Below, one piece after another: positions 4,888 through 32,000 of a stretch of 32,000 bases of DNA. Position numbers and translations under genes: made by a program. The notes beneath the pieces were generated by a model that saw nothing but the letters and a program-made list of their open reading frames with translations, did no database searches and was not told the origin of the DNA. This DNA is from Clostridiales bacterium. Lineage in GTDB: Bacteria > Bacillota > Clostridia > Saccharofermentanales > Saccharofermentanaceae. The DNA lies in NCBI GenBank assembly GCA_017478485.1, contig JAFVDI010000036.1, positions 2,747 to 34,746 on the forward strand, given 5' to 3'. Position 1 is the first letter of the stretch; each line of letters starts with the position of its first letter.

Positions 4888-4922
4888 GAAACCCCTTCGT
4901 AGAAATACGCGGGGGTTTTCTT
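4888..4922 (+). terminator. rho-independent terminator
   Basis: GAAACCCC (4888-4895) pairs with GGGGTTTTC (4912-4920), followed by a T-rich tail. Confidence 0.6.
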
Positions 4923-4960
4923 ATGGCTTTCTTCAAACAAACTAAGAAAGGACGAGATAA

Positions 4961-7900
4961 ATGAAGTTTTCAAAAATGATCTGTGCTTTTGCAGTCGCTT
5001 CACTTCTCATGCTTCAGAACGTCGCTCCGATGGTTCCGGTAATTGCCGATACCACCGAGACAACAGTTGAGACTGAAGCCACAGAGGAAACAAAGCATCA
5101 TGAAGAGACAGCAAAACCGAAAGAAACAACGAGACAGACCGAATCCTCTGAGACTTCTGAAACAACAAAAGCTTCAGAAAAGCCGGTTGAAACAGCGGTA
5201 CCTTCTGAGACAACAGAACCTTCAGACGAAACAAAGCCCTCAGAAACGACAGAGTCAAAGGAAACTACAGAGCCTTCAGTGTCAGCAATAACGGCTGAGA
5301 CAACGGCTCCGACAGAAAAGACTGAGCCTTCTGAAACCACAGTGCCTTCTGAAACATCGGAAAGCTCCGAGCCTTCCGAAACAACGTCAGAAACAACCAC
5401 CGTTGAAACACCCAAGATCGTTAAGGCAAAGTCTGCTGACGAGTATATCAAACTCGTTGCTGCTCTCCCTGATGGTGACAAGCTCATTGTCGCTACCAAA
5501 GATGATCTTTCAGCCTTAAAGCCTGATGCAGGCGTTTACTTTGACGGCATCTATACACTCTGGTTTAAGACTGGCTCAGAATACGGTGCGGCTGTTAAGT
5601 ATGCAGCTTCTCATCGCTATGGCTATACGGAAGACGGCGTTGTCGGTCTCTGCGGTACTGCTGATTATTCAGCTTACGCTAAATACGCCATTAAGACCGC
5701 TTCGGCATGCTCTTCAGGCAAAACAAGGATCGTCATAATCGATACAGGCGTTAACGGCGCTGATGAAGCATATTCCGTTATCGGTTCCGACGTGAAGGAT
5801 AAGAACGGCCATGGTACTTTCATGGCTGACCTGATCAAGGAATCCACAGACAAGGCCTATATCATTTCAGTGAAGGCTGTCGGTGATAACGGCAAAGGCA
5901 CTGTCTCCGATGTTTACAATGCACTTCAGTATGCAGCCGACCAGAAGCCTGACATCATCCTGATGGCGATCTCAATCAAGGATAACCCTGATGAATATGT
6001 TGCTTTGAAGTCACTCATTGAGGAAACAGCATCCAAAACGACTGTCATCGCTTCAGCCGGTAACAATAATGCTGACGCATCCAAGTATCTTCCTGCAGGC
6101 TCAGATGGTGTTATCACCATTGGTGCAGTCAAGAACGATTTCTACAAAACGGCCACTTCCAACTACGGAGATGCCGTTGATTACTACGCAGTTGCCGCTT
6201 CTACTTCAGAAGCTTCCGCAACGTTCGTCGGCAAGTATATTGCTAAGGACGATTCAGGAGTAGTCGTGAGCTATGCCGGTTCAGAAGACGGTGTTGAGTA
6301 CGTCGGTGATGACATCTTCTTCGGCATCGACAGTGATTTTACCGATAACACCAAGAAGATCCTTGGCGGTGACGACCTCAAGATGTCCGCTTCCGTCTTC
6401 CATCAGCGTGTTCTCCAGTACGCAAAGGATATCTGTGATGACAACAGATACCAGTACAGCTTAGACGGTGGCACATATAACCTTGACTGCATAGGCTTCG
6501 TAAACAAGGTCTACTACCTCGCACTCGGCAAACCTGCCTTCAAGTCAGGGACCAGCTACTATGAGGCTAAGTACGCTTACAAGTCCAGTTCCAAGACCTA
6601 CCGTGCAAGGATCTTCAATGGCAATACAGCTCCCAGCTGTGGTGCCTGGATCAACTATGCAGGTATCCGTACAAAGCCTTCAGCATCCTCAAAGTCAAAG
6701 AAATGCACGACGCTCTCGGCGGCTGCGAAGCATATCAACAAATACGCGGTTCCCGGCGACATCATCATGTACGGTTCAACTACACATTGGGTTCATGCAG
6801 CAATCTATGCCGGTTCTGCCAACAGCGGAAAGTCTTACTATGAATACGCTGCTCACAACAAGTCTCTGGGCATTTCAAGAATCATAAAGACTGAGACGAC
6901 ATTCTCGGCCCCCAAGAGTGATGACAGCGATTCAAGGATCTCTTATGTGCTCGTTGTCCGTGTTACCGGCACAAGCACAACAGGTCTTAAGTTCGTCAAG
7001 AAATGTATCGGTGATCAGGACTTACTTGGCGAATGTTACTCGTTTGAGGGAACAACTTACGGAATTTACACTGACGAAGCATGCACGACCCCTTATTCCA
7101 CTATGCCTACGATCGAGTTCGACGAGGCAGGCGAAACAGACAGCATGATCCCTACGATCAGCAATTATCCCCTCACCGTTTATCTCAAAGAGACCAAAGC
7201 AGGTCCCGGTTACCTTGTCGACGATTCAGTCTATAAGCTCAATCTGGCAAGCACATCCGCAGGCACTGTAACCACAGTCGAAGGCGATGGCGAAGCTAAG
7301 CTCACTCTGAGTAGCGGCATTTTTACCGTAACACTTTACGATATCCCGACATTTGACCCACTCACGATCAGGCTTCGTAAAACCGGCGTTAACCACGCTT
7401 CAGCTCCGATGAACAAGGCTACGTTCCGCATACGTTACTACGATGCAGATTATCCTTATGACCCTGCAGTCTTCACTCCTGATGATTTCGATAACAACGA
7501 GACACCGGAAGACGATTTCTATATAACTATCAGCAATCCCGATCAGCTTCGTGACTTAAGTCTTAAGGATCTGGCCGGTTATGGAAGTGTTACTGTAAGC
7601 GGTGATAACAGCTCACTGAAAGCAATTTATGATGCTCAGTTGAGCACAATGTTTTTCCCGTTTGGAACCTACAGGATCCAAGAAGCAACAGCACCTGACG
7701 GATACTATCTCAACGACAGTGTTTACAGGATCAAGCTGTTCATGAACAATGACAGAGATGCTGATATTGAAATGCGTAACGAGAAAACCGGAAAACTGCT
7801 CACAGAGTTCACTATAGATAACGAGCCCGGTGTCGATATCGCGGTCCCGGAGATCAACGGTCCTGCTTACTTCAGTCTTGAAAAGCGCGTAACTGATGAT

Positions 7901-9502
7901 TCAAGCCGTGCAGGGTTCACTTTTGAGATCTATTCAGGTTCAACCCTGTTCTGCACCGGTGTTTCCGAAGCAGATGGCCGTGTCAGATGGACTTATAAGA
8001 TCGCTGATTACTACAGCACGAATAAGGATCCTGAGCATGGTGCGCTTACAACCCTTCTTACAAACACCTCTGCATATCAGATCGAATTGCCGAGCAATGC
8101 ACAATTCCAGATCCGTGAGACTTTCGAGACTGAAGGTCTTAAGTCTATGTGGAAGATCCCCGAAGGATGGAGTAACGGCGGTATGTATTACTACAAGAAC
8201 TTCACAAGTGGAAATATGTTCCATGCTACTTCTGACAGTGTAACAAACAAGCCCGCATTTAAGAGTTACAGACTGACAAAGGAACTCAAAGCGTCTGATG
8301 ACACACTGAACAAAGCTGGTTTCGTCTTTGCTGTAGCTGATGAGAACGATAAAGTCTATGCAAACGGCGTATCCGATGAGAACGGTAATGTTCAGTGGAC
8401 ATACACATCTGAAGGTGCTTTATCAGGTATCCCGGGTGCTTCTGTAGGCGGCAGGACTGAAAAGCTCCTGCTTAGACCTAACTATGCTGACGGAACTCCG
8501 ATCAAATACCAGGTAAGAGAGCTCATTCCCGGAACACTCCAGGTTCGTGGTATCCCCGAAGGCTGGACTGACGGCGGTGAGTATTTCTACAAGGCCATTG
8601 ATACTGCCGAAGATGTTATCAAGGATTCCGTTTTGAACTATGTCCCGGATATCAGGACTAAGGCAACAACCGAAGTCGGTAAGACTGTTGTGTACTCCAC
8701 CCAGGCAACCATTAAAGATACAGTTTCTTATAGAAATCTCGTACCTGGCAAGACATACACCATGAGCGGAAAGCTTATCGTTAAATCGACCGGCAAAGAA
8801 GCCAAGGACGAAAACGGTAACGCTATCGTTTCAAGCACAGAGTTCACGCCTGAAACTTCAGACGGCACTGTTGAAGTAACATTCACTTTCAACAGCACGC
8901 TGCTTCAGGGCGAAAAGCTTGTTGTCTTTGAGTCACTTACCTACAACAAAGTAGAGTATGCGGTCCATGCCGACATCAATGATGAAGGCCAGACAGTCTA
9001 TGTTCCGAAGGTTGGCACGACAGCAACTATCAAGGGCAAGAAGTCCATATTCCTTGCTTCAACCGAAGTCAGGAACATAACGATCACTGATAAGATCGCA
9101 TATAAGGGCCTTGAACCCGGCAGGAAGTACCGTGCTGAGGCAACGCTCTACAAGAAGAACGGTGCTCAGCTCATGAGGGACGGAAAGCCCGTCACCGCAA
9201 CACTCGAGTTCACTCCCGAGAATTCTTCCGGAACAGTGGAAGTCAAGATCACATTCTCTTCCAAGGGACTTTCCGAAGGCGACAAGATCGTCGTGTTCGA
9301 GAAAGTGTTCGATGTAGAGACCAATATCCTTATCGGCGTTCATGAGGACTTGAAGGATAAGAACCAGACAGTCACTATCCACTTCATGCCTCTGACAGGC
9401 GAGATCTCTCCGACTTACGTTAAGTTCGGTGTAGCTCTCGCTTCCTTGTCTGCTCTTGTCATCGCTCTGATGGCAAGACGCAAAAAGAAACTTTCGACAT
9501 AA
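4961..9502 (+). CDS. large wall-anchored multidomain surface protein: S/T/E/P-rich stalk, subtilisin-like S8 domain, NlpC/P60-like domain, Cna-B/SpaA-type Ig folds, two VaFE (Thr-Gln ester-bond type) repeats, and an LPXTG-like sorting signal
   Basis: Signal peptide MKFSKMICAFAVASLL. S8 triad context VIIDTGV (D261), NGHGT (H284), ASTSEASATFVG (S416). NlpC/P60 context LDCIGFV (C510) and GDIIMYGSTTHWVHAAIYAG. FGTYRIQEATAPDGYYLND is a Cna-B-like motif. KLVVFESL...HADINDEGQTV and KIVVFEKV...HEDLKDKNQTV are the two VaFE repeats. C-terminal MPLTG (9386-9400) is followed by a hydrophobic helix and RRKKK. Confidence 0.9.
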   Translation: MKFSKMICAFAVASLLMLQNVAPMVPVIADTTETTVETEATEETKHHEETAKPKETTRQTESSETSETTKASEKPVETAVPSETTEPSDETKPSETTESKETTEPSVSAITAETTAPTEKTEPSETTVPSETSESSEPSETTSETTTVETPKIVKAKSADEYIKLVAALPDGDKLIVATKDDLSALKPDAGVYFDGIYTLWFKTGSEYGAAVKYAASHRYGYTEDGVVGLCGTADYSAYAKYAIKTASACSSGKTRIVIIDTGVNGADEAYSVIGSDVKDKNGHGTFMADLIKESTDKAYIISVKAVGDNGKGTVSDVYNALQYAADQKPDIILMAISIKDNPDEYVALKSLIEETASKTTVIASAGNNNADASKYLPAGSDGVITIGAVKNDFYKTATSNYGDAVDYYAVAASTSEASATFVGKYIAKDDSGVVVSYAGSEDGVEYVGDDIFFGIDSDFTDNTKKILGGDDLKMSASVFHQRVLQYAKDICDDNRYQYSLDGGTYNLDCIGFVNKVYYLALGKPAFKSGTSYYEAKYAYKSSSKTYRARIFNGNTAPSCGAWINYAGIRTKPSASSKSKKCTTLSAAAKHINKYAVPGDIIMYGSTTHWVHAAIYAGSANSGKSYYEYAAHNKSLGISRIIKTETTFSAPKSDDSDSRISYVLVVRVTGTSTTGLKFVKKCIGDQDLLGECYSFEGTTYGIYTDEACTTPYSTMPTIEFDEAGETDSMIPTISNYPLTVYLKETKAGPGYLVDDSVYKLNLASTSAGTVTTVEGDGEAKLTLSSGIFTVTLYDIPTFDPLTIRLRKTGVNHASAPMNKATFRIRYYDADYPYDPAVFTPDDFDNNETPEDDFYITISNPDQLRDLSLKDLAGYGSVTVSGDNSSLKAIYDAQLSTMFFPFGTYRIQEATAPDGYYLNDSVYRIKLFMNNDRDADIEMRNEKTGKLLTEFTIDNEPGVDIAVPEINGPAYFSLEKRVTDDSSRAGFTFEIYSGSTLFCTGVSEADGRVRWTYKIADYYSTNKDPEHGALTTLLTNTSAYQIELPSNAQFQIRETFETEGLKSMWKIPEGWSNGGMYYYKNFTSGNMFHATSDSVTNKPAFKSYRLTKELKASDDTLNKAGFVFAVADENDKVYANGVSDENGNVQWTYTSEGALSGIPGASVGGRTEKLLLRPNYADGTPIKYQVRELIPGTLQVRGIPEGWTDGGEYFYKAIDTAEDVIKDSVLNYVPDIRTKATTEVGKTVVYSTQATIKDTVSYRNLVPGKTYTMSGKLIVKSTGKEAKDENGNAIVSSTEFTPETSDGTVEVTFTFNSTLLQGEKLVVFESLTYNKVEYAVHADINDEGQTVYVPKVGTTATIKGKKSIFLASTEVRNITITDKIAYKGLEPGRKYRAEATLYKKNGAQLMRDGKPVTATLEFTPENSSGTVEVKITFSSKGLSEGDKIVVFEKVFDVETNILIGVHEDLKDKNQTVTIHFMPLTGEISPTYVKFGVALASLSALVIALMARRKKKLST

Positions 9503-9583: not shown

Positions 9584-10312
9584 ATGAAATATGGCAAAGC
9601 ATTAAGGATCCTGCTCCAAACGATACTTATCGCTGCTTTCCTGATCGGCATTGCCCTGGTGGGCATTTACCTGATAAAAAGCTTCGTTCGAAAAAGTGTG
9701 TCAAACGGCGCAAAGATCGCTATTGAAAATGTGATAAACAACGGTGGAGGCGATGTAACTTACGATGTTCCGGACTCTGACTTCTATTCAGTCGATGGTG
9801 AAATGGGAGAAGAAGACATTTCCCCTTCTGATCTCGTGTATCAGATGAAAACACTCTCATCTACATACAAAAAACTGAAGCTTATCGGAATACTTGAGAT
9901 CCCCTGCATAAAGGTAAAAGAACCAATATGGGACTCCTGCTCTAAAACCGCATTGCGCTACGGTGTGGGGAGGTTCCCCGACACGTGCAATATCGGCGAG
10001 GCAGGTAATTGCACCATCTTCGGACACAGGATGAAGAACAAAACCATCTTTTGGCAGCTCCAGAAGCTTGAAAAGAAGATAGGCGAAGAAGTCATCGTTA
10101 CGACAACAGACGGCGTGAAGCACAAATACACGATAGTCAGTTCCACTTATGTCAAAGGTTCTGCCGTCGATCCGTACCTGACTGCAGATTTGTTCAGCAC
10201 AGAGCATTTGTGCCTTGCTACATGCGGCTACGGCAGGGATCCGTTTAACAAGAAGATCTTTTGGCCAAAGGCTACGGAATTCATCGTGATTTGTGTGCCT
10301 GTAAATACTTAA
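9584..10312 (+). CDS. sortase-family transpeptidase
   Basis: N-terminal TM helix, GNCTIFGHRM (active-site His context) and HLCLATCGY (TLxTC-type Cys). It sits immediately downstream of the protein carrying the sorting signal. Confidence 0.85.
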   Translation: MKYGKALRILLQTILIAAFLIGIALVGIYLIKSFVRKSVSNGAKIAIENVINNGGGDVTYDVPDSDFYSVDGEMGEEDISPSDLVYQMKTLSSTYKKLKLIGILEIPCIKVKEPIWDSCSKTALRYGVGRFPDTCNIGEAGNCTIFGHRMKNKTIFWQLQKLEKKIGEEVIVTTTDGVKHKYTIVSSTYVKGSAVDPYLTADLFSTEHLCLATCGYGRDPFNKKIFWPKATEFIVICVPVNT

Positions 10313-20094: not shown

Positions 20095-20484
20095 ATGGAA
20101 ATAAACATAAACAAAGACATCAGAGAATATACCGAAGGCGTTTTCTTCGGACTTAACATCCGCCAGCTGATCTGCTCCGGTTGTGCTATTGCTTCTGCCG
20201 TTGGGATCTACTTCGGCATGCGGGAAAAGATATCCCAGGATGCAATTACTTACCTCTGTATAGCCGCTGCTCTGCCTTTTGCTGCGATCGGCTTTATCAA
20301 GTACAACGGCATGCCAATGGAGAAGATCTTCGTGGCATGGTTCAAGGATTGCTTCCTCTGCCCCAGAAAGCTTAATTGCAGGGCCAACAACATCTATAAG
20401 GAAGCGCTTAAGGATTATTTCGATGCAAAAGAAAAGGAGGCTATGAATGCTCAAGAGCATAATGACACTGCTGAAGCAGGATAA
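20095..20484 (+). CDS. PrgI-family (VirB3-like) membrane protein
   Basis: The N-terminus NKDIREYTEGVFFGLNIRQLICSG plus two TM helices is typical of PrgI. It overlaps the virB4 start by 38 nt. Confidence 0.8.
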   Translation: MEININKDIREYTEGVFFGLNIRQLICSGCAIASAVGIYFGMREKISQDAITYLCIAAALPFAAIGFIKYNGMPMEKIFVAWFKDCFLCPRKLNCRANNIYKEALKDYFDAKEKEAMNAQEHNDTAEAG

Positions 20485-22801
20485 GGAGGCTTTCAAGGTC
20501 CCAAGAAGGGTTCAGGACCTCGTTCCAATTAAACGGATCTGGCCTGACGGAATCTTTCAGGTAGGCACGAACAAGTTCGCCAAAACCTGGAAGTTTTCGG
20601 ATATCAACTATCTGGTGGCAAGTGAAGGAGATAAAGAGAACATGTTCCTGCTCTATTCCGACGTTCTCAATTCCTTTGACAGTGCTGCTACGACCAAGAT
20701 CACGGTAAACAACCACAGGCTCAACAAGAAGGACTTCGAGAACTCGATCCTCATGCCGATGAAGCATGACGGCCTTGACGATTACCGTCAGGAGTATAAC
20801 GACATGCTCCTGGAAAAGGCTACCGGTGCTAACGGCATCACTCAGGAGAAGTATATAACCGTGTCCATCAACAAAAGAAGCGTTGAGGATGCGCGAATCT
20901 ACTTCGCCAGGACCGGAGCTGACCTTCAGATGCGTTTTGCTTCTTTAGGCAGCAGGCTTGAAGAACTGGATGCTCTGGAAAAACTTCGTATCCTTCACGA
21001 CTTCTACCGTCAGGGCGATGAGACCACATTCGAGTTCGATATGGCCAAGAGAGCCAAGCTCGGTCATGACTTCCGTGACTATATATGTCCGGATACGATC
21101 GAACGCGGCACGGACTATATCAAGCTCGGTGAGAAATATGTCAGAGTACTGTTTCTCAAGGACTACGGCAACTATATCAGCGATGACACCATTGCCGAGC
21201 TTACCGACATGAACAGAAACCTGATGCTTTCAATTGATGTTCTCTCCGTCCCCACAGATGAAGCGATCCGTGAGGTCGAGAACAAGCTATTAGGCGTTGA
21301 GACCAACATCACCAACTGGCAGAGAAAGCAGAACCAGAACAATAACTTCTCAGCTGTTATCCCATACGATATGGAGTTGCAGCGTAACAAGACAAAGGAG
21401 TTCCTGGCTGACCTCACAACCCGTGACCAGCGAATGATGCTCTGCCTCATCACAATGGCGATCACATCTGAGAGCAAGGAACTGCTTGATCTCGATACCG
21501 AAAGTCTTCAGGCCGTCGCCAAAGGCAGACATTGCCAGATGGCGGTCCTCAAGTGGCAGCAGGCGGACGCGCTCAACATCGTCCTCCCCTTCGGAGTCAG
21601 GAAGATAGACTGTTTCAGGACCCTTAACACGGAATCCCTGGCAGTATTCCTTCCCTTCAAAACGCAGGAAATCATGGACAAAGGCGGGATCTACTACGGC
21701 GAGAACGCTATTTCCCATAACCTTATCATGTGCAACAAGGAGAACCTCTTAAACCAGTCCGCCTTCCTTTTGGGCGTTCCCGGTTCGGGCAAGTCTTTCT
21801 CGGCTAAGGAGCTCATCACCTTCCTTATGCTCAATACGGATGACGACATCCTTATCTGCGATCCTGAGGGCGAGTACGCGCCTCTTGTTGAAGCAATGGG
21901 CCCTGAAATGGGCTCTGTCATTAGGGTTTCGGCCGGCGGAAGAGACAGGCTCAATGCGATGTATATGGTTGACGGCTATGGTGAGAACGACCCTATCGTA
22001 GTTAAGTCACAGTTCATCATGTCCCTTGTTGAGCAGATTGATAAAAAAGGCGTCGGGCCTCAACAGAAGTCCATAATCGACCGCTGTGCCGCAGCCGTTT
22101 ACCGGGATGCCGAGAAAACTAAGTCTTCAGGCGGTCCTGTCCCTACCCTCTGCACTTTCCGTGAGAAGCTCTTGGAACAGCCGGAGCGTGAAGCAAAGCA
22201 GATAGCGTTATCGCTTGAGCTCTTCACTACCGGATCTCTTGATATCTTCGGGCGTGAAAGCAATGTAGATATGGACAAGAGGGTCGTCGTTTTCGATATA
22301 CACGGCTTAGGCAGCCAGCTTAAGCCCACGGGACTTCTTGTCATAACGGACACTATGCTTAACCGAGTAACCCTTAATTGGAAGAAAGGTAAGCGTACAC
22401 ATGTCTTTATCGACGAGTTCCATGTCGTATTCGAAAACGAGTTCTCGGCACAGTTCTTTAACTCTGCCTGGAGACAGTTCCGTAAAAGGAACGCCTACCC
22501 TACCGCCATCACGCAGAATGTCGAGTATCTTTTGGACTCCATTCAGGCATCCACGATGCTTTCCAACTCGGAGTTCGTAATAATGCTCAACCAGGCAGCA
22601 TCGGACAGGGCCAAGCTTGCAAAGCTTTTGAACATCTCCGATATTCAGATGCGTTATATCACTAACGCGCCTGCAGGCACGGGTCTTATCAAGTACGGTG
22701 CCGCTCTCGTACCTTTCGTTAATAAGTTCAATAAGGATACGAAGCTCTACCACTTGATGACTACAAAGCCATCAGATAACGGAAAGTTTGCAAGCGGTTA
22801 A
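20447..22801 (+). CDS. virB4: VirB4-family conjugal transfer ATPase
   Basis: Walker A LLGVPGSGKS and Walker B HVFIDEFH. 784 aa. RBS GGAGG 6 nt upstream. Confidence 0.93.
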   Translation: MLKSIMTLLKQDKEAFKVPRRVQDLVPIKRIWPDGIFQVGTNKFAKTWKFSDINYLVASEGDKENMFLLYSDVLNSFDSAATTKITVNNHRLNKKDFENSILMPMKHDGLDDYRQEYNDMLLEKATGANGITQEKYITVSINKRSVEDARIYFARTGADLQMRFASLGSRLEELDALEKLRILHDFYRQGDETTFEFDMAKRAKLGHDFRDYICPDTIERGTDYIKLGEKYVRVLFLKDYGNYISDDTIAELTDMNRNLMLSIDVLSVPTDEAIREVENKLLGVETNITNWQRKQNQNNNFSAVIPYDMELQRNKTKEFLADLTTRDQRMMLCLITMAITSESKELLDLDTESLQAVAKGRHCQMAVLKWQQADALNIVLPFGVRKIDCFRTLNTESLAVFLPFKTQEIMDKGGIYYGENAISHNLIMCNKENLLNQSAFLLGVPGSGKSFSAKELITFLMLNTDDDILICDPEGEYAPLVEAMGPEMGSVIRVSAGGRDRLNAMYMVDGYGENDPIVVKSQFIMSLVEQIDKKGVGPQQKSIIDRCAAAVYRDAEKTKSSGGPVPTLCTFREKLLEQPEREAKQIALSLELFTTGSLDIFGRESNVDMDKRVVVFDIHGLGSQLKPTGLLVITDTMLNRVTLNWKKGKRTHVFIDEFHVVFENEFSAQFFNSAWRQFRKRNAYPTAITQNVEYLLDSIQASTMLSNSEFVIMLNQAASDRAKLAKLLNISDIQMRYITNAPAGTGLIKYGAALVPFVNKFNKDTKLYHLMTTKPSDNGKFASG

Positions 22802-22915
22802 TACCTTCTTAATTCCATTCCATGCCTTGCATGGTAGTATAAGTTAAGAACTTCGACGTACCATGTACCCTACCTTTCAAATATCCTCTTATTGGTATGT
22901 CACATCACCCCCTAA

Positions 22916-22945
22916 CCCCTTGTCACAAGTTGACAAGGGGTTTTT
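22916..22945 (+). terminator. strong rho-independent terminator after virB4
   Basis: CCCCTTGTCA (22916-22925), loop CAAGT, TGACAAGGGG (22931-22940), then TTTTT (22941-22945). Confidence 0.85.
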
Positions 22946-22967
22946 ACATGAGCACGGCAAGTTTTCG

Positions 22968-22996
22968 TTGATTTGTTTTGTTCAAAAACATATACT
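22968..22996 (+). promoter_or_regulatory. sigma-A type promoter for the PLD-ATPase cassette
   Basis: TTGATT (22968-22973), 17-nt spacer, TATACT (22991-22996). It ends about 32 nt upstream of the ATG at 23029. Confidence 0.55.
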
Positions 22997-23028
22997 TTTA
23001 TTTATTGAACTATTTGACAGGAGGCGTT

Positions 23029-25071
23029 ATGGAAAACAGTCAAGTATCCATATTTGATTTGTCTGGAACTGTAAAAGAGAAGAGTTTACAGGCGGTTTTA
23101 TGCAAATATGAAGAAATCTACGACACGAACTTTGAAGAATTATTTACTGGCTTTGATGACATCAAGGTTTTAACCTTCTCATATGGTATGGGTTTTATTA
23201 ACAAGACCTTAAAACTGTTTAGGACAGCGGAAATTATTCTCGGGTCGGAGTTCCGTGTTAAATATGATATCAAGGAAGTCATGGCCGCCCAAGAAGATGA
23301 CGCCCCATTTATGACTTTTCAGGCTTCATGTCTAAGAGGAATAAGGCGTAACAAGTATCTTGTTGATAGGATTCTTAATGATGAAGTCTCCGTTTATCTG
23401 GCAAAAGAAATTATTGCTCATGAAAAGTTGTATATCCTTACAGCCGAGAACGGATCCACTAGAGTAATTTGCGGCTCGGCAAACTTTTCGGATAAAGCTT
23501 TTGAAGGCGGAAGTCAAAGAGAAAGCATTCTTGTGTTCAATAATGATCCCGGTGCATATGAATGGGCTATGAATGAATTCGACATGGTAAAGGATATGAG
23601 CACACAAGAAATAATCAAAAGTGCCATATACTACAGTGAAACCGGTCTTCCAAAAGATGAAAAAGATGAAATCAAGGAAATACCAATAGTTGCCGAAGCC
23701 ATTGCCAAAGAAGCCGGAATCATTCTTGAATCCGAAAGTGTTGTCTCTGATGATGAATACCAGTTTGCAGTAGATGTAAGCAACTTCAAGAATAGAATTA
23801 AAGGTGTTGTGAATGCGGTCGCAAAGAAAGACGCGATAGGTAAGGTTCTGATAACACCAATTAAAACTAATGATCTTATAAGATCATTCCGTAAAAAGGT
23901 TGTTAAGGAGGCTGAAATCCGAAAAGTACACCCGGAGTTTTCTGTAGATCTTTTGAATCATAAAGCGGTACTTAACGACAAAGAATTCAATCTGGATCCA
24001 TCTCAAGAAATGGTAAAGGCGGATATTGAGGCTTTAGACAGGTTCTTTTCAGGATATGACAGATTTCTTGGAAATGTCGAAAATACAAAGAATCAGTTTT
24101 TTCTTCTGATGAATTATATGTTTTTGACTCCCTTTGTCGGAAAGGTCCGTAACACAGCATATAGGCATAAGTATGCTTCTATCTACTACCCTGTTTTCGC
24201 CGTTCTTGTTGGAGACAAAAACTCTGGAAAATCCTCTTTTGTTAAGGTTATCCAAAAGTTTATGTTCTTAAAGGATCTGCAGTCATTCACAGGAGAACAC
24301 TGGACTAAGACAACAGTACGCGGACTTATGCAGAATGTGTCCGAAATACCGATTTTAATCGATGATATCAGCAGAACAAGGTTTAAGGAAAATGCTGATG
24401 AGATCATTAAAGAGGATGACAATATAAATCAATCGGGTATTACGACCATCCCTTCTTTTGTTCTGACATCAAACGACATCACTACAAGTATTGAGCCGGC
24501 TCTAAAAAAACGAATGCTATATATAACTTCCGATTTGAAGTTGGATAATGTAAATGCGGCACACATGCACAAACTTGTTCATGACAATATCGAAAATCTG
24601 AACGGTTCATTCTACTGTAAGTACTTGAGTAAGATGATTGACAGAGTTAATGATTTGCTTGAATTGATCAAATCAGACAAAGCAGAAGACGAGAACTGGC
24701 ATCCTGATCTCTTTAAGATTTCATCCGAAACAATTTGCGAAATCGTAAGCGAAGCCTGTGGTACAACCCCGAAATACATGAGAAAAGTCACTTTTGAAGA
24801 TTATTTCGGTGTAGATACTGCCATGACACGCGATATCAAAGCAGAGATCATTACAAACTACCAGCACAACAAAAGAGCTTTTGTTATTGACCGTAAACGC
24901 AACAAGTTGGTCTATACTCCAGGTGAAAAACAATATGAAGCAAGACGATATGCCGATGCCCTTCCCGAATTTCTCGAGGCAAAAGTGCAAAATAACTATA
25001 TACTAATGGAGTTGGATAAAGCAGAAGAATTCTTTGGAATTAAGTTCAAGAGAGGTTTTCGGTTTAGATAA
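23029..25071 (+). CDS. fusion protein: N-terminal single-HKD phospholipase-D-family nuclease domain plus C-terminal SF3 (D5/P4-type) P-loop NTPase (680 aa)
   Basis: ATG 23029 after AGGAGG. HKD motif H131-E-K...GSAN152 (AHEKLYILTAENGSTRVICGSANFS, nt 23419-23484). Walker A GDKNSGKS (24211-24234), Walker B ILIDD (D445/D446), motif C FVLTSN (N482), followed by ALKKRMLYI. Confidence 0.8.
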   Translation: MENSQVSIFDLSGTVKEKSLQAVLCKYEEIYDTNFEELFTGFDDIKVLTFSYGMGFINKTLKLFRTAEIILGSEFRVKYDIKEVMAAQEDDAPFMTFQASCLRGIRRNKYLVDRILNDEVSVYLAKEIIAHEKLYILTAENGSTRVICGSANFSDKAFEGGSQRESILVFNNDPGAYEWAMNEFDMVKDMSTQEIIKSAIYYSETGLPKDEKDEIKEIPIVAEAIAKEAGIILESESVVSDDEYQFAVDVSNFKNRIKGVVNAVAKKDAIGKVLITPIKTNDLIRSFRKKVVKEAEIRKVHPEFSVDLLNHKAVLNDKEFNLDPSQEMVKADIEALDRFFSGYDRFLGNVENTKNQFFLLMNYMFLTPFVGKVRNTAYRHKYASIYYPVFAVLVGDKNSGKSSFVKVIQKFMFLKDLQSFTGEHWTKTTVRGLMQNVSEIPILIDDISRTRFKENADEIIKEDDNINQSGITTIPSFVLTSNDITTSIEPALKKRMLYITSDLKLDNVNAAHMHKLVHDNIENLNGSFYCKYLSKMIDRVNDLLELIKSDKAEDENWHPDLFKISSETICEIVSEACGTTPKYMRKVTFEDYFGVDTAMTRDIKAEIITNYQHNKRAFVIDRKRNKLVYTPGEKQYEARRYADALPEFLEAKVQNNYILMELDKAEEFFGIKFKRGFRFR

Positions 25072-25674
25072 ATGATTGGTTACGCAAAAATAAGACCAAA
25101 TGATGAAAAGGAATCTGTGTCGGCGCTTTTTCAGCCCTATCGCTGCGAAAAAATCATAATTGACGACTCACACAATCCTAAAGCCGAGGATAGCATTTGG
25201 CAAAGATTAAAACAGGAAATCTTCTCGTCGGATGATCGTGATTTGATAGTCGATTCATTGTTTAGTCTTGGAAAAACCGGTCGTGAAATCTCCAAAGAAC
25301 TGGAGTGGGCATATTCTAACAATATAAAATTGTATATCATCACCGTCCCTTCAACTTTTGAGAACCAACCCTTTGCCAATAAACTGCTTGTTGAGTTGTA
25401 TAGGGATAAAGCCTCTTTAGAGCGTAAAAATGTTGCAGTAAGGCAAGCCGAGGGTCAAAGAAGCGCTACGGAAGCAAATGTTAGATTTGGACGTCCAACC
25501 ACACCATATCCTGCTAATTGGGAGAAAGATTATGCTGCATGGCGCAATAAAGAATTGACAACAAATGACTTTATGGAAAGGTCCAAACTCAAAAAAGGTA
25601 CATTTTATAACCTGATAAAGCGTTATAAAAATGAACTTAGTACCCAGAATCAAGACACAAAAGAATTAGTTTAA
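25072..25674 (+). CDS. serine-recombinase (resolvase/invertase) fold protein lacking the catalytic residues, with a C-terminal HTH
   Basis: The start abuts the upstream stop (TAA 25069-25071, ATG 25072). MIGYAKIRPNDE replaces GYARVSTxxQ, and LFSLGK replaces LDRLGR. The E-helix (ERKNVAVRQAEGQR...VRFGRP) and HTH (GTFYNLIKRYK) are retained. Confidence 0.75.
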   Translation: MIGYAKIRPNDEKESVSALFQPYRCEKIIIDDSHNPKAEDSIWQRLKQEIFSSDDRDLIVDSLFSLGKTGREISKELEWAYSNNIKLYIITVPSTFENQPFANKLLVELYRDKASLERKNVAVRQAEGQRSATEANVRFGRPTTPYPANWEKDYAAWRNKELTTNDFMERSKLKKGTFYNLIKRYKNELSTQNQDTKELV

Positions 25675-25696
25675 ATCACACAAAATGTTACCTAAG

Positions 25697-25724
25697 GCCC
25701 TCGGGATTGACCCGGGGGCTTTCT
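25697..25724 (+). terminator. rho-independent terminator closing the two-gene cassette
   Basis: GCCCTCGGG (25697-25705), loop ATTGA, CCCGGGGGC (25711-25719) with one G-U pair, then TTTCT. Confidence 0.7.
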
Positions 25725-25770
25725 CATATGCTTGTTTTCAAGCCAAAACACAGCAAAGGAGTTAAATGAA

Positions 25771-27420
25771 ATGCCACAAATCAATAAAGTGGAACGCGAC
25801 CACAATATCAGGCAGGTATCGCGTTTGGATGACATAAAACCTGCTACAGAGAAATCAATAACAAAAGTTGTCCCGATTATTGATCAAAAATCGGGACAAT
25901 CTGATCTTACGGCAACTATGGATGCCGCAAGGAGAACCGGTATATCCGCCATAAGGCAGGCAAGGTCACTCTCAGGCAGTTCAGATAAAACCGAAGATCA
26001 GGAAGCGATAGACAAGCTTGAAGCCTCCGCCCGTAACGCTTCCAGAGAATCCGCGATTGCTGCCAAAGAGTCTCTCAGAAGACAGATAAAAAGAAAAAAG
26101 CCGGATATCAAGACGAGTGACCGATCGATCCATAAAGCTGACCGCATTAGAAAAAGCTCAATTGAAGCTTCGCAAGCAATCGTCAAAAGCGCGACAGAAG
26201 TAGCAAAGCAGGCTGCTATTGCTTCTCATAAGGCTGTTTCAGTGAGAAGGACCGAGCAAATGGCTAAGAAGTCCGCTGAATGGGTCAAAAGGATCGTCAG
26301 GGGCATAATCGAAAGCACCAAACAGCTCTTCAGTACATTGGGCGCCGCCGCTGTGCCTCTTATGCTGATACTTGTCCTTGCAGGCATGGTCGGCGGTATC
26401 GTCGCATCCTCTTTCGGCATTTTCTTTGTCGGTAATCAGTCTGGCAATAAAACAAGATCTCTTCAGGATGTCATTCTAAGTATCAACTCGGAATACAACA
26501 ATAAGATCGAAAGCATAAAAAAGAAAGTCTCTCATGATGAGCTCACTACAGAAGGTTATCAGGCACCCTGGTCTGATGTTCTCTCAGTCTATGCCGTCTA
26601 TGTCACGACAAAGACTGAAGATGCGACAGATGTGGTTCATATCACGGACGCCAATGTAAATGTACTTCGAGACATATTCTGGAAGATGAACTCAGTGACT
26701 TACACAACCGAAAAGGTTACCGAAAAGAAAAAGGTCCCGGTGCTAGACGAGAAAGGCCAACAAAAGAAAGATGCAGACGGAAACCCAGTCTATACCGAAA
26801 AGAAGATAACCAAGACCATTCTTCATATCAAGACAACTCACAAAACAGCAGAACAGCAAGCCGCTGCCCTCTCCTTCAATGTAAAACAGCTAGCTGAGCT
26901 AAAAGAACTCCTAGATGTTAAGAACGCTTCACTATGGGCTCAGATCCTCAAAGGCATTGGTTCAGGATCGAATGAACTGGTAAACCTCGCTTTATCGCAG
27001 CTTGGCAACAAAGGCGGCGAAAAGTACTGGAGATGGGCCGGGAGCAGCAAGCGAATTGCCTGGTGCGCCCTTTTCGTATCTTGGTGTGCTGATAAGACCG
27101 GGCTTAGAGCTTCCGGTCAGATCCCTTACTTCTCTTTTGTCGGTGACGGTGTCCACTGGTTTAAGACAAAAGGAAAATGGATCAAAGGCTCTGATGTCAA
27201 CAGTACCAACTATGACAAGCTCATCCGTCCGGGCATGCTCATCTTCTTCGACTGGCTTGAAGACGGCAAGCGAGATGGTCACGGCGATCATGTGGGAATT
27301 GTCACTAAGGTCGCAAATGGTCGATTTTATACGGTTGAAGGTAACAAGGACGATAAAGTCGCAGAAGGTTCTTACCCTGTTGGCAGCAAAAGTATACTTG
27401 GATTTGGAATAGTTGGATAA
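25771..27420 (+). CDS. conjugation-associated cell-wall hydrolase with a C-terminal CHAP domain
   Basis: ATG 25771 lies 9 nt after AAAGGAG. TM segment AAAVPLMLILVLAGMVGGIV. CHAP motifs IAWCALFVSWC (Cys) and GHGDHVGIV...TVEGN (His). Confidence 0.88.
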   Translation: MPQINKVERDHNIRQVSRLDDIKPATEKSITKVVPIIDQKSGQSDLTATMDAARRTGISAIRQARSLSGSSDKTEDQEAIDKLEASARNASRESAIAAKESLRRQIKRKKPDIKTSDRSIHKADRIRKSSIEASQAIVKSATEVAKQAAIASHKAVSVRRTEQMAKKSAEWVKRIVRGIIESTKQLFSTLGAAAVPLMLILVLAGMVGGIVASSFGIFFVGNQSGNKTRSLQDVILSINSEYNNKIESIKKKVSHDELTTEGYQAPWSDVLSVYAVYVTTKTEDATDVVHITDANVNVLRDIFWKMNSVTYTTEKVTEKKKVPVLDEKGQQKKDADGNPVYTEKKITKTILHIKTTHKTAEQQAAALSFNVKQLAELKELLDVKNASLWAQILKGIGSGSNELVNLALSQLGNKGGEKYWRWAGSSKRIAWCALFVSWCADKTGLRASGQIPYFSFVGDGVHWFKTKGKWIKGSDVNSTNYDKLIRPGMLIFFDWLEDGKRDGHGDHVGIVTKVANGRFYTVEGNKDDKVAEGSYPVGSKSILGFGIVG

Positions 27421-27597: not shown

Positions 27598-27656
27598 CAA
27601 GAAGATAGTAGAATTTGTTTAGTAATAAAAACAAATTTGGCCAAGGAGGAATAAAA

Positions 27657-29396
27657 ATGTCTAAACTAGTAGTTGATCAGAAAACGGTTTATGAATTGTT
27701 TGGCAACAAAAATGCATACTTCTTGATTCCCGATTATCAACGTCCCTATGCGTGGGATGAAGTTGAATGTCAAACCTTATGGAATGATATTTTCTCCTTT
27801 GCAATACCAGAAAACGACTATTCAAAATTCAATAATGATGACGAATATTTCTTAGGTCCAATCGTTACATTTGACAATAATAATAAAAAAGAAGTAATTG
27901 ATGGCCAACAAAGATTAACTACTCTGTTGCTACTTCTACGCGCTTTTTACTGTTCATTTGGTACAATGGCAGACGAAAATTCTCTTGCTACAAAACAAAT
28001 GATAGAAGCCTGCATCTGGAAGACGAACGAGTTTAACAAGCCCGATATGAATGTTTTGAAGATAGATTCTGAAGTAGCTTCAGATGAGCACAAGGAAGAA
28101 TTCCTCTCCATTTTAAAAACTGGAATCGTTGAGGACAAGATGAAGAGCAATTATGCTGTTAACTATCGGTTCTTTCAGAAGAAGATTGAGGAGTTCCTTC
28201 ACACATACCCAACATATTATCCCTATTTGCCGATACGAATAATGAAGAATTGCATCTTACTTCCGATTGAAGCAGAATCTCAGGATACTGCTCTGCGTAT
28301 CTTCTCAACCCTTAACGACAGAGGAAAGCCATTGTCTGATGCTGATATTTTTAAAGCCCAGTTGTATAAACACTATTCTCTTAAGGGAGAGAAGGATACT
28401 TTCATCAAACGTTGGAAGGCGTTGGAATCTAAGTGTAATGAAATCTATCATCCTATATCTGGTACTCCTATGGACGAGGCATTTACTCGTTATATGTATT
28501 ATGAGAGAGCCAAGATGGGAATAAAATCTTCTACCACAGAAGCTTTGAGAAAGTTCTATGAAAAAGACAGTTATGCTCTGTTAAAGAATGATTTAACATT
28601 CGACAACATTGTGGATCTTACAGATTTCTGGGAGTCTGTTTCGAAACAGGACGAAGAGAGATTCTCCGATGATGTGCTGAAAAAGCTGTTTATCTTGAAT
28701 TATGCTCCAAATGGTATGTGGACATACTTTGTTTCAGTCTATTACTTAAGCAATAAAGACAGAGGCGGATTGCTTGAAGAAGGGGCATTCCTTAGTTTTC
28801 TCGAGAAAACCATTGCTTTCATATGGACATATGCGGTAACCAATCCAGGCGTTAACTCTCTAAGAACCCCGGTATACGCAGAAATGATAAGTGTTGTAAA
28901 ACACGATAATGTTGATTTTGCGGATTATCTGTTTGATGAGAAAACAACGCGAACATCCTTTGATAACTATGTTTTTACAAACAACAGAGGTATTACAAAG
29001 TCAATGTTAACATGGTGGGCTTATCATAATAAGGATCAGAGTCTGATCCCTCTTGATACTACATTGGAAATAGAACATATTTATGCCAAAAATCGTTTTG
29101 AAAATGAGAAGTCTTTAAGCAATGCTGCTGTTATTGAAAAACTTGGTAATAAGTCTCTTCTGGAAAAGAGAATCAACATTCGTGCATCAGATTATAGATT
29201 CAACGATAAGAAAAAATATTATCAGGGGTTTGAAGGTTCCAGAGGATACAAGCCAGGAACTTGTATTTCTGATTTAAAATGTCTTGCTAACGCAAAGGAG
29301 AATTTTGAGGAAAAAGATATCAACAATAGAACTAAAGAGATCTTAGATGCTTTTTTTGAGTATTTAAAGAGTAATAGTTTGATTGCTTTAGCATAA
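27657..29396 (+). CDS. GmrSD-like DUF262/DUF1524 protein (putative modification-dependent type IV restriction enzyme)
   Basis: ATG 27657 lies 7 nt after AAGGAGG. DUF262 motifs IPDYQRPYAW and DGQQRLTT (27900-27923). C-terminal His-Me finger-like LEIEHIYAKN ... LGNKSLLEKRIN (H474 at 29076-29078). Confidence 0.85.
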   Translation: MSKLVVDQKTVYELFGNKNAYFLIPDYQRPYAWDEVECQTLWNDIFSFAIPENDYSKFNNDDEYFLGPIVTFDNNNKKEVIDGQQRLTTLLLLLRAFYCSFGTMADENSLATKQMIEACIWKTNEFNKPDMNVLKIDSEVASDEHKEEFLSILKTGIVEDKMKSNYAVNYRFFQKKIEEFLHTYPTYYPYLPIRIMKNCILLPIEAESQDTALRIFSTLNDRGKPLSDADIFKAQLYKHYSLKGEKDTFIKRWKALESKCNEIYHPISGTPMDEAFTRYMYYERAKMGIKSSTTEALRKFYEKDSYALLKNDLTFDNIVDLTDFWESVSKQDEERFSDDVLKKLFILNYAPNGMWTYFVSVYYLSNKDRGGLLEEGAFLSFLEKTIAFIWTYAVTNPGVNSLRTPVYAEMISVVKHDNVDFADYLFDEKTTRTSFDNYVFTNNRGITKSMLTWWAYHNKDQSLIPLDTTLEIEHIYAKNRFENEKSLSNAAVIEKLGNKSLLEKRINIRASDYRFNDKKKYYQGFEGSRGYKPGTCISDLKCLANAKENFEEKDINNRTKEILDAFFEYLKSNSLIALA

Positions 29397-29412
29397 TAAT
29401 ATGGTGAAAACA

Positions 29413-32000
29413 ATGGGTAAGTTATCAGAATATGAAGTTGAAGAGATGTTCATAAACAAGCTGGAAAGCATTGGTTATGATTACATCGAATTAAATAATT
29501 ATACAGATGTGCTTAACAACTTTAGGTCGCAGCTGTGTAAGCTAAATGCTACAAAACTCATTGAGAAGAAAGGCATCGCCGAGTTGTCTCAAAAGGAGTT
29601 TGAGCGTCTTCTGATATATGTAGACAATAAAACTGTTTATGAATCAGCTAAGATTCTAAGAGACAAATATATCCTTCAGCTTGATAATGGTGAAACTGTT
29701 TATTTGGAGTTTTTTACACCTGATTCTACTCGTAATACTTATCAAGTTGCTCATCAGATAACAATGGATCCTGAACACAAGGATGATGTTGTCTATAAGA
29801 ACAGATATGACGTCACAGTATTCGTTAACGGTTTACCATTGGTACAGATAGAACTTAAAAGACCCGGCGTTGAGATTAACGAGGCGGTTAATCAGATTAA
29901 CAGATATCGCAAATTCTCTTTCAAAGGACTCTTTCATTATCTTCAATTATTTGTAGTATCGAATTCTGTCCAGACAAAATACTTCTGCAATGAAAATGAG
30001 ATGTTAAATGGTCAGCGAAGACCTATTCTCAAGAGCTTAGTATTCTTCTGGACAGACGAAAACAATGACAGAATCAATGATCTATCTGATTTCACTTCGG
30101 ATTTCTTCAGGAAGACATTTCTTACCGATATTATTTTCAAATATATGGTAATTAAAACTACCGAAGATACATTGATGGTAATGCGACCATATCAAATTTA
30201 TGCAGTCCAAGCCGCAAAAAAGAGAGTGCTTGAGGTTAATAAAGACGGATTTATCTTCGCTTGTACTGGTTCAGGAAAAACACTAACATCTTTTAAGCTG
30301 GCACAGTTACTGAGAGATGAAAACGCGGTAGATAGAGTTATATTCCTCATTGACCGCAAAGACTTAGATGACCAGACCATAGATGAATATAATTCGTTTG
30401 AGAAGGATTGTGTTGATAGAACCACAAACACTTACGCTCTGATCAATCGTTTGCGCGACAAATCACAGAAACTAATTGTTACCACAATACAAAAGCTTGC
30501 CAAGGCATCAAATAACAGTAAGTTCGATGAATTGCTGGAAAGCATGCGTAATGACAAAGTCGTTTTTATCATTGATGAATGCCATAGATCTCAGTTCGGC
30601 AAGATGCATGCTGATATCGCTCGCCGCTTTGATAATGCCAACTATATCGGATTCACTGGTACACCTATTTTTAAGGAAAACAAAGGTAGCAATAATCAAA
30701 CAACAGCTGATCTCTTTTATGCCGGAGAAAATCTTGATTCGTGTCTGCATAAATATATGATCAAAAATGCAATAGCGGATGGAAATGTATTGAAATTTTC
30801 CGTCGAATACCAAAGATCAATTCTAGTTAAAAATGTTCAAGCAAAAGGTATTGATCCCGATAGGCTTGATGATCCTGAATACTGTCGGATACATAATGTG
30901 GATATAAATTCTTTGTATCATGACAAACAGAGAATAAGAAATATAGCTGAGCATATTTTTAAGAATCATCAGATACATGTTCATCCTCAAGGCGAGAGTG
31001 TATATACAGCCATGTTTGCTGTAGATCAAATACAAACGCTCGGAATGTATTATAAAGAGTTCAAACGACTTAATGATGAAGCTCCTGAAGATAAGAAACT
31101 CAGGATAGCGGCCATATTTACTTATCAAGCTAATGAAGATGTTGATGAAGATGAAGGTATGGATGAACACTCCCAAGAGTTATTAGACTCATGCATAGAT
31201 GATTACAACGACTTATTTGGAACATCATTCAGTACGGAAACTTTTGACTCATATCGAAAAGACATACAAAAACGCTTGAAACAAAAAGAACTTCCACAAG
31301 TAGATCTTTTGCTTGTAGTTAATATGTTCCTTACCGGGTTTGATGCTAAACCTTTAAATACGCTATATCTTGACAAAAACCTTATTTGGCACTCACTGCT
31401 TCAAGCATATAGCAGAACAAACCGTGTCGATAAAGCATCCAAACAGTTTGGACAAATCATCACATATCGTAATATAAAAAAGGCTCAGGACGATGCTCTA
31501 AAACTCTTCTCAGGTGACGGCAATCCGGATGAGTATCTTCTCAACAGTTATGAATACTATACAGAGGAGTGGAGAACAAAAACAGGCGAATTGATGAGGA
31601 TCGCACCGACAGCTTCGGAAGCTGGACATCTTCAATCAGAGGATGATATCAGAATGTTTGTTGTAGCTTTTAGAGCAGTTTCAAAAACACTCGCTATTTT
31701 GAAAACCTTCTCAAAGTTCGACTGGAAGGATCTTTCGATAGTACTTAGCGAAGATGAGTACGAAGCATATAAAAGTTGGTACTTATATTTCTACGACATC
31801 TTAAAGAAAGAACGTGAAACTGAAAAAGTTCCAGTCCCGGTTGATGTCGACTTTGACATTGAGCTGATAAGAACTGACAAGATCAACGTAGTTTATATCC
31901 TTAACCTTCTCAAAGAGGTCAATCGTAAGAATCCCGAAGAAATGCGACGTTCTGCAGATCTTATCCTTCGTGAAATAGAGCGTTCTGACAATGAAGCACT
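29413..32000 (+). CDS. hsdR: type I restriction enzyme R subunit (HsdR), 3' end truncated by the window edge
   Basis: I translated the frame by hand and it is open from 29413 (alternative start 29401) to the window end. N-terminal nuclease region RYDVTVFVNGLPLVQIELKRPG. Helicase motif I ACTGSGKT, motif II IIDECH (30574-30585), and also FLTGFDA and LLQAYSRTNR. Confidence 0.92.
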   Translation, partial: MGKLSEYEVEEMFINKLESIGYDYIELNNYTDVLNNFRSQLCKLNATKLIEKKGIAELSQKEFERLLIYVDNKTVYESAKILRDKYILQLDNGETVYLEFFTPDSTRNTYQVAHQITMDPEHKDDVVYKNRYDVTVFVNGLPLVQIELKRPGVEINEAVNQINRYRKFSFKGLFHYLQLFVVSNSVQTKYFCNENEMLNGQRRPILKSLVFFWTDENNDRINDLSDFTSDFFRKTFLTDIIFKYMVIKTTEDTLMVMRPYQIYAVQAAKKRVLEVNKDGFIFACTGSGKTLTSFKLAQLLRDENAVDRVIFLIDRKDLDDQTIDEYNSFEKDCVDRTTNTYALINRLRDKSQKLIVTTIQKLAKASNNSKFDELLESMRNDKVVFIIDECHRSQFGKMHADIARRFDNANYIGFTGTPIFKENKGSNNQTTADLFYAGENLDSCLHKYMIKNAIADGNVLKFSVEYQRSILVKNVQAKGIDPDRLDDPEYCRIHNVDINSLYHDKQRIRNIAEHIFKNHQIHVHPQGESVYTAMFAVDQIQTLGMYYKEFKRLNDEAPEDKKLRIAAIFTYQANEDVDEDEGMDEHSQELLDSCIDDYNDLFGTSFSTETFDSYRKDIQKRLKQKELPQVDLLLVVNMFLTGFDAKPLNTLYLDKNLIWHSLLQAYSRTNRVDKASKQFGQIITYRNIKKAQDDALKLFSGDGNPDEYLLNSYEYYTEEWRTKTGELMRIAPTASEAGHLQSEDDIRMFVVAFRAVSKTLAILKTFSKFDWKDLSIVLSEDEYEAYKSWYLYFYDILKKERETEKVPVPVDVDFDIELIRTDKINVVYILNLLKEVNRKNPEEMRRSADLILREIERSDNEA

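Follow-up and report, generated by a model that had tools for sequence, protein, structure and literature searches.

The TnpR resolvase of Tn3 and gamma-delta does more than resolve cointegrates: it also represses tnpA and tnpR through res, where its binding sites, dyads of ~28 bp with ~12-bp arms, overlap its own promoter. A nearer relative of the protein discussed here is ResP of the pCP13/pCW3-type plasmids of Clostridium perfringens (AP024978, gene resP), which keeps the motifs GYARVSSKEQ and ELDRLGRN and is presumably active. Our subject is a 200-aa protein encoded at 25072..25674 on the forward strand of a 32,000-nucleotide stretch of Clostridiales DNA (contig JAFVDI010000036.1), which we call the window, and of the annotated proteins ResP comes nearest to it: BLASTP aligns the two over their full length (198 residues) at 31% identity, E 1e-23. 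It is a dead small serine recombinase, with K6, R8, F64, S65 and K68 at the catalytic positions, and its gene directly follows, on the same strand, the gene for a 680-aa protein (23029..25071) which, judged by its motifs, is a phospholipase D (PLD) family nuclease fused to a superfamily 3 (SF3) helicase. In our opinion, held with slightly more belief than doubt, the 200-aa protein is a resolvase-derived autorepressor of a mobile nuclease-helicase cassette that is itself probably a defence or conflict module.

The parallel with TnpR is instructive. Both proteins have a Gly-Arg arm and a helix-turn-helix (the gamma-delta structure 1gdt is among the Foldseek matches of the window protein), and in the role that we propose the binding site of the window protein would likewise overlap its own promoter. 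They differ in that TnpR is catalytically active, whereas the window protein lacks the chemistry and a repressor function is all that we infer for it, and in that TnpR controls a transposase gene, while the proposed target here is the nuclease-helicase gene. The initial annotation, which saw in this protein a possible new use of the fold, was right only in part, since repression by a resolvase is not wholly new. The whole family would then retain only the DNA-binding half of the resolvase's dual role and, if this is true, would offer a clear example of an enzyme turned regulator, with a defined site. The only precedent for an inactive serine recombinase that we found in the literature is vaccinia virus F16, which is predicted to be one (PMC11980589). 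F16 is like the window protein in being a serine-recombinase homologue retained after catalysis was lost, and unlike it in being a eukaryotic-virus protein, targeted to nucleoli, with no known operator or partner nuclease. Our literature search found no description of a PLD nuclease-SF3 helicase paired with an inactive resolvase, and the two-gene cassette, such a fusion with what would be its dedicated repressor, is uncharacterised.

The resolvase fold, proposed in the initial annotation from an alignment by eye, is borne out by comparisons of sequence and of structure. Pfam Resolvase (PF00239) matches the 200-aa protein with 24.8 bits against a cut-off of 23.3, Sin resolvase (2r0q) matches residues 2-147 with E 8e-4 (HMMER), and the PHROG family 'DNA invertase' does so at 3.6e-12; together with the match to ResP, this homology is well above chance. 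ResP and the window protein also have their architecture in common, down to the unusual C-terminal motif GRP..YP.NW..Y..W..KE.T...M....LKK.(S/T)FYNLIK.Y. An AlphaFold2 (AF2) monomer model built from 61 homologues, with a predicted local distance difference test score (pLDDT) of 91.6, consists of a beta-alpha core followed by a long helix (99-134) and, at the C-terminus, by a bundle of three helices (within 150-196), and its top Protein Data Bank (PDB) matches in Foldseek are full-length Sin, gamma-delta and Tn3 resolvases. The protein thus has the full small serine recombinase fold, with catalytic domain, E-helix, Gly-Arg arm and helix-turn-helix, and we take the Gly-Arg to be the minor-groove arm of Hin and gamma-delta.

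What it has lost is the nucleophile and the three catalytic Arg. GYARVSS(K/L) of ResP and Sin aligns with GYAKIRPN (HMMER, BLAST), and (I/L)DRLGR of Sin and ResP aligns with LFSLGK. In what we take to be the gamma-delta numbering, R8 and S10 are replaced by K6 and R8, and D67, R68 and R71 by F64, S65 and K68. Therefore the nucleophilic Ser of the YARVS motif is Arg8 in the window protein, and none of the three catalytic Arg (R8, R68, R71) has an Arg in its place. The earlier statement that every key catalytic residue is substituted holds for the nucleophile and these three Arg, but not for the E-helix, where E117, R118 and R124 are kept; counting back from the aligned Gly-Arg, we presume these to be gamma-delta E118, R119 and R125. 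That the E-helix and the C-terminal helix-turn-helix persist was correctly noted before; both are seen in the alignment of 61 sequences and in the AF2 model, as is the Gly-Arg arm.

These losses are common to the family. A first search returned only five other clusters, which are 41-62% identical and all have SLGK, and a profile search for homologues returned 151. When 1.84 billion representatives were searched exhaustively, the count rose to 1843 clusters at E<1e-3, of which 484 pass E<1e-10 and 70, defined at 50% identity, pass E<1e-30. None of these ~70 keeps the catalytic set. In the 61-sequence alignment the nucleophile column reads K49/T5/S2/R1/N1/F1/A1/E1 and the R8 column Y48/K7/R4; the R68 column has no Arg at all (0/61), and the R71 column, mostly I28/K11/L10/M4 (53/61), has Arg once. 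In 49 of the 61 homologues the E-helix is shortened by a deletion of 8 residues. Invariant are the arm residues G140-R141, P147 and, in the helix-turn-helix region, W150, W157, F167, K174, T177, Y179 and N180. Family members, which the databases label 'resolvase', 'recombinase family protein' or 'hypothetical', are found in Firmicutes and Campylobacter, in genomes and in metagenome contigs, many of them from gut samples.

It may be argued that the protein is still a recombinase, working through another nucleophile, or else a pseudogene on its way to decay, and we judge either to be extremely improbable. A Ser does appear sporadically at the nucleophile column in the clade of the window (P0002, P0003, L018, P0171, P0176), and Ser65 (25264-25266), which replaces the catalytic R68 within the invariant (S)LG turn, is conserved in 54/61 members. 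The former is never found together with R68, however, and an enzyme of this kind would have to do without Arg at R68 and, in all but one sequence, at R71, in most members without eight residues of the E-helix, and without substrate: we found no paired recombination sites flanking an invertible or excisable segment, since the 32 kb hold one dyad only (described below) and no meaningful repeats around 22700-25800. Ser65, the sole conserved hydroxyl near the former active site, is probably structural. As to decay, it is excluded by intact full-length open reading frames that carry the same substitutions and persist down to 25-30% identity, across phyla including Campylobacter. Because the loss is common to all homologues examined, close and distant, it is a family trait, and the protein is a selected pseudo-enzyme, not a decaying copy. 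Two outcomes that the initial annotation considered fatal to its claim, a Ser or conserved catalytic Arg in a proper alignment and a decaying gene, thus did not materialise.

The direction of descent can also be read. In matches weaker than ~E 1e-25 the catalytic motifs are complete (YARVSTKEQ, LDRLGRN, RQxEGI) and the C-terminal motif is the one described above, therefore the change went from active to dead. The likely course, as far as the alignments allow us to reconstruct it, is that an active ResP-like resolvase lost its Ser/Arg set with the E-helix still intact, as in the window's clade, and that the E-helix deletion then followed in a large clade.

The dead resolvase is closely tied to the nuclease-helicase. 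In 24 of 29 species-level genomes that have the former, the latter lies immediately upstream on the same strand; these include Lachnospiraceae, Finegoldia, Anaerococcus, Peptoniphilus, Anaerovibrio, Blautia, Ligilactobacillus and Campylobacter. Of the five unpaired cases, four are Lachnospiraceae or Clostridium genomes that share a solo copy in synteny, and the fifth is a short contig. In the window the ATG at 25072 comes immediately 3' of the TAA (25069-25071) of the nuclease-helicase gene, with 0 nucleotides (nt) between them, and the only purine-rich run before it is GAGAGG (25050-25055), 16 nt 5', which makes a weak ribosome-binding site; the abutting stop codon and the poor site had both been pointed out in the initial annotation. 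Translational coupling, which it deduced from them, is a fair reading and in keeping with the spacing in the close relatives of the window, where the genes abut (0 nt in the window, L007 and L058) or overlap by 4-17 nt (L008, L009, L054); it is not universal, as gaps of 12-61 nt occur in L016, L018 and L020. There is no third conserved gene: neighbours differ at almost every locus, and the most frequent family among them, ComM-type Mg chelatase, accounts for 3 of 116 neighbour proteins.

Upstream of the pair lies what we propose to be its operator. The initial annotation reported neither flanking inverted repeats nor res-like sites; this has to be revised, since a res-like dyad of 31 bp is present upstream of the cassette on the forward strand at 22980..23010 (found by a pattern scan and conserved in a sister element, L054). 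It has the form GTTCAAAAAC-N11-GTTTATTGAAC with the half-site GTYYAWAAA, its full sequence is GTTCAAAAACATATACTTTTATTTATTGAAC, and it lies 19 nt before the ATG of the nuclease-helicase gene. A putative sigma-70-type promoter, TTGATT-17 nt-TATACT (22968..22996, same strand), is a pattern match only, with 9/12 agreement in a consensus scan, and it is placed where other loci have TTGACA/TATAAT-like boxes within their dyads; the dyad covers the predicted TATACT -10 box and transcription start. In L054 the dyad is identical at 30 of 31 positions, and the rest of the spacer at 50/108 and 10/18 (46-56%). The window-type dyad is also kept in L059 and L060, whose nuclease-helicases are 77% and 56% identical to that of the window.

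An inverted-repeat search upstream of nuclease-helicase genes returned a recurrent motif, (T)GTCTAWAAAT...ATTTWTAGAC(A), and of 84 occurrences of GTCYAWAAA in 540 kb, 56 fall within 200 nt upstream of the operon. In distant clades the dyads are of 28 bp (9+10+9), GTCTAWAAAT...ATTTWTAGAC, and often there are two of them ~40 bp apart; in L022, L025, L024, L046 and L030 a TTGACA -35 box lies inside the first dyad, and the second begins just after the -10 box, TAATAT or TATAAT. With the generalised dyad GTYYAWAAA-N8-15-TTTWTRRAC, at most one mismatch allowed, we obtained 31 matches in 475 kb, of which 30, spread over 23 of 34 loci, are no more than 220 nt upstream of the operon; the window itself has exactly one match. 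An outer-pentamer pattern, GTYYA-N17-23-TRRAC, scored in the 150 nt upstream of the cassette, is found at 27 of 41 cassettes with the dead resolvase as partner and at 0 of 45 without (background 33 in 503 kb). The strict dyad pattern is specific but insensitive, since it detects only 2 of 15 out-of-sample loci from clades at 36-39% and 26% identity, where diverged dyads can be recognised by eye: GTTCAATAA-N13-TTATTGAAC, GTCCATTAT...TTTTTGGAC and TCCAATT-N11-AATTGGAC. The recognition helix appears to vary in step with the site, as KKA (KKATFYN) goes with GTCTAWAAAT sites and KKG (KKGTFYN) with those of the GTYCAAAAAC type. Further, the solo dead-resolvase genes of the four genomes have the half-site motif in their own upstream promoter region, therefore the motif travels with the dead resolvase and not with the nuclease-helicase.

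ResP provides the link to recombination sites. Its gene is immediately preceded by three tandem dyads, of 26, 32 and 30 bp, that share the half-site consensus in a layout like a three-subsite res, and two of them match at no more than one mismatch where 0.035 would be expected. The window cassette has one dyad only, and it appears that a res site has here been reduced to one or two operator dyads. On the C. perfringens plasmid pCP-O13-19-2 (L053) the resP dyads are at 1203-1313, with the half-site GTTTAWAAA, and the third encloses a TTGATT box resembling a -35; by their sequence they look like a so far unannotated three-subsite res for ResP.

For an autorepressor one would look for a symmetric site that overlaps its operon's promoter and is present where the regulator gene is present, and both are found here. 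We therefore propose the following. A ResP-like plasmid resolvase would have lost its recombination chemistry and kept its site-specific DNA binding; the dead resolvase, most likely as a dimer, would bind the res-derived dyad overlapping the promoter of its own operon and so repress transcription of both the nuclease-helicase gene and itself. Because the repressor gene lies downstream, expression of the cassette would be high just after its entry into a new cell and would then fall. We regard the cassette as a transcription unit complete in itself, which conjugative elements and small genomic islands carry as cargo, and its nuclease-helicase would probably be an ATP-dependent DNA-degrading effector in defence or in conflict between mobile elements. 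By analogy, the controller proteins of restriction-modification (R-M) systems may serve as a precedent for an autoregulatory repressor that binds an operator.

The initial annotation had left a choice between a DNA-recognition and a regulatory subunit. Since the conserved res-like dyad sits on the cassette promoter, we favour the regulatory role; for the recognition subunit we found no direct support. In that alternative, which seems to us unlikely though still to be taken seriously, and which is compatible with autorepression, the dead resolvase would be a stoichiometric subunit that recognises a DNA sequence or structure, for example res-like sites on foreign plasmids or transposons, and recruits or loads the nuclease-helicase there. 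The strict adjacency of the genes, abutting or overlapping in close relatives of the window, would suit it, as would the likeness of the half-site to the dyads that precede resP on the C. perfringens plasmids. It is also true that no sequence-specific DNA-binding domain was recognisable in the 680-aa protein by Pfam and fold searches, and that the structurally related PLD restriction enzymes NgoAVII and SauUSI use separate recognition modules. On the other hand, the sole strict site in the window is in the cassette's own promoter, where targeting of a nuclease would be self-destructive; the two proteins are never fused among the 150 matches listed of 1843; solo partners are kept intact in four genomes; and most nuclease-helicase clades have either no partner or a WYL regulator.

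The nuclease-helicase itself deserves a closer description. Its start is placed at the ATG at 23029, behind GGAGG, in preference to a TTG at 22978, and the gene callers on identical public contigs agree. Pfam finds PLDc_2 and RE_NgoFVII in the N-terminal part and PF27394 (Aq_aa27) in the C-terminal P-loop domain; a full-text literature search for 'Aq_aa27' returned nothing but artefacts from DOI strings. Across 18 homologues H131, K133, G149, S150 and N152 (HxK...GSxN) are invariant, as are G400-K401 (Walker A), N482 (motif C) and K494-R495, and D446 (Walker B) is nearly so. Hence the PLD HxK...GSxN motif and an NTP-hydrolysing motor are both present, and as far as motifs can tell the catalytic sites of the fusion are intact. 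In Foldseek the AF2 model (pLDDT 72.8) matches the SCCmec helicase Cch, the D5-like helicase part of African swine fever virus PrimPol, the SaPI5 primase-helicase, and the SF3 helicases of polyomavirus and parvovirus, while its N-terminal part matches the NgoAVII R protein and SauUSI (4rct, 7clg). The 680-aa protein is thus like NgoAVII, SauUSI, Cch and the SaPI5 primase-helicase by fold, and it keeps HxK...GSxN, Walker A/B, motif C and an Arg-finger; the PLD and SF3 halves match separate PDB entries, and no entry in the fold search combines both. Compared with NgoAVII and SauUSI, no methyl-sensing or B3-like recognition domain was detected in it. Its likeness to ATP-dependent PLD restriction enzymes is therefore to be understood as an analogy and not as membership in their family, the motor being SF3, not SF2. 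A phage origin is unsupported, with no match to the nuclease-helicase in 50,697 phage records.

How the nuclease-helicase fares without the dead resolvase is informative in another respect. Only about 20 of 80 metagenome nuclease-helicase loci have the partner, namely the clades closest to the window and one clade at 26% identity; the remaining ones, many of them environmental, do not. Given a two-gene operon with translational coupling, a dyad operator at its promoter and a location on mobile elements beside classical toxin-antitoxin pairs, one could think of a toxin-antitoxin-like pair, in which the nuclease-helicase is the toxin and the dead resolvase neutralises it by binding while repressing the operon, so that the element is stabilised, or abortive infection triggered, when the partner is lost. 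We find this rather improbable, because P0021, a close homologue of the nuclease-helicase with every catalytic residue in place, occurs on 5 contigs with no partner, and because the distant homologues on plasmids of Arcobacter and Athalassotoga are unaccompanied too. Upstream of one further plasmid homologue, in Acetobacter, there is a recombinase gene at ~600 nt; it is unrelated, with the full motifs GYARVSTVGQ and LDRLARS, and its position is probably coincidental.

In three other clades the nuclease-helicase is adjoined, up- or downstream, by a WYL-WCX regulator and there is no dead resolvase. Regulators with a WYL domain, of the BrxR and CapW type, control defence systems and are thought to sense a ligand. 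They have a fold unrelated to that of the dead resolvase, in which no sensing domain is evident. Still, by analogy, a WYL-WCX protein at the equivalent position suggests the same job, that of a dedicated repressor of a dangerous effector, and the use of unrelated regulators, dead resolvase or WYL, across effector clades fits a need for tight transcriptional control. The loci concerned are L073 (regulator at 4525-5538), L074, L132, L126, L127 and L129 (1355-2281), and genes for a GmrSD_N-Schlafen protein and a NERD-UvrD helicase flank one of the WYL-clade loci.

The window as a whole is a Firmicutes conjugative element, with genes for ParA, ParB, a Toprim/DUF3991 protein, a MobA/VirD2-like relaxase and a coupling protein, and further for TrbL, PrgI, VirB4, a CHAP hydrolase, an adhesin and a sortase. 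The cassette stands out in it by a G+C content of 38%, against 46-51% for the conjugation genes, and is bracketed by two terminator-like hairpins on the forward strand. The first (22914..22942) is a perfect inverted repeat with a 12-bp stem and a 5-nt loop followed by UUUUU (-19.3 kcal/mol, z -4.4), and would mark the end of the VirB4 transcript and the 5' edge of the cassette. We had to consider this palindrome as a binding site as well, but it is ruled out as such, being a hairpin with a U run that in L054 has a different sequence and the same structure. The second (25694..25722; -21.6 kcal/mol, z -3.75, then UUUCU) closes the cassette before the CHAP hydrolase gene. Between the window and L054 VirB4 (20447-22801) is 91% identical, whereas in the cassette (23029-25674) the nuclease-helicase is 76% and the dead resolvase 60% identical; compared with the conjugative backbone, the cassette either evolves much faster or was exchanged.

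Downstream of the CHAP gene there is a GmrSD-type (DUF262/DUF1524) type IV restriction gene (27615-29396) and then the start of a type I R-M operon (29401-32000), for which the identical public contig L001 shows hsdR, hsdM and hsdS. The G+C content of this block is 34-40%, compared with the 46-51% of the conjugation genes, therefore we regard it as a second block of cargo, made of defence genes. The sister element L054 has BREX genes (BrxA, BrxB, BrxC) in its place. At other loci the neighbours of the cassette are ParE/Phd and RelB/ParE pairs, a zeta-like toxin, SocA, an LHH toxin with SUKH immunity, SoFic, DISARM genes, methyltransferases, comM and housekeeping genes. In PADLOC-DB v2.0.0 the dead resolvase matched no family, and the nuclease-helicase had no significant match, only marginal ones (ZacB, E 6e-4; JetA, 6e-3; AriA, 0.05). 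In our opinion this cassette, found on conjugative elements with GmrSD, type I R-M and BREX as neighbours, may reasonably be considered a candidate for a new system of defence or of protection against plasmids.

Several points weigh against the autorepressor of a defence cassette. Many of the neighbours just listed are housekeeping genes, and the assignment to defence is drawn from context alone. A downstream gene with an abutting start also fits a protein that is needed in a fixed ratio with the nuclease-helicase. Of the partner-bearing loci, 14 of 41 fail the outer-pentamer pattern, although some of these have diverged dyads by eye. Finally, shuffled sequence yields 0.03 generalised dyads per window, a statistic that is partly circular, as the degenerate half-site was widened after the window's clade had been seen. 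Three checks are independent of that widening, namely the footprint in L054, the control with partner-less cassettes and the dyads upstream of resP.

One may go further and speculate that the dead resolvase senses res-type sites when plasmids or transposons of the ResP resolvase family enter the cell, and that it recruits or licenses the PLD-SF3 helicase for their destruction, the operator in its own promoter being the ancestral res site kept for feedback. We give this idea little credence, but if it were true, it would be a form of anti-plasmid immunity in which a domesticated copy of the invader's own resolvase serves as the sensor.

A few observations remain to be recorded. The solo dead resolvases, which have no nuclease-helicase beside them, are at about 7800-8410 in L026, L030 and L031 and at 5304-5885 in L027; the site is chromosomal and syntenic, between a copper ATPase/LUD-like gene and nadA, and these proteins might be orphan repressors of incoming cassettes. 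The P0021 locus (L013-L015) encodes an RNase H/Cauli_VI protein, a DEAD/ResIII helicase with a Cauli_VI domain, a RelA/SpoT-like protein and two toxin-antitoxin pairs, and also a protein of the Pfam family Aq_aa04, which like Aq_aa27 is apparently named after Aquifex proteins. The adhesin gene of the window (4961-9502), which precedes the sortase gene (9584-10312), encodes 1513 aa with T-Q ester-bond and SpaA-type domains; this surface protein probably serves the conjugative element as its mating adhesin.

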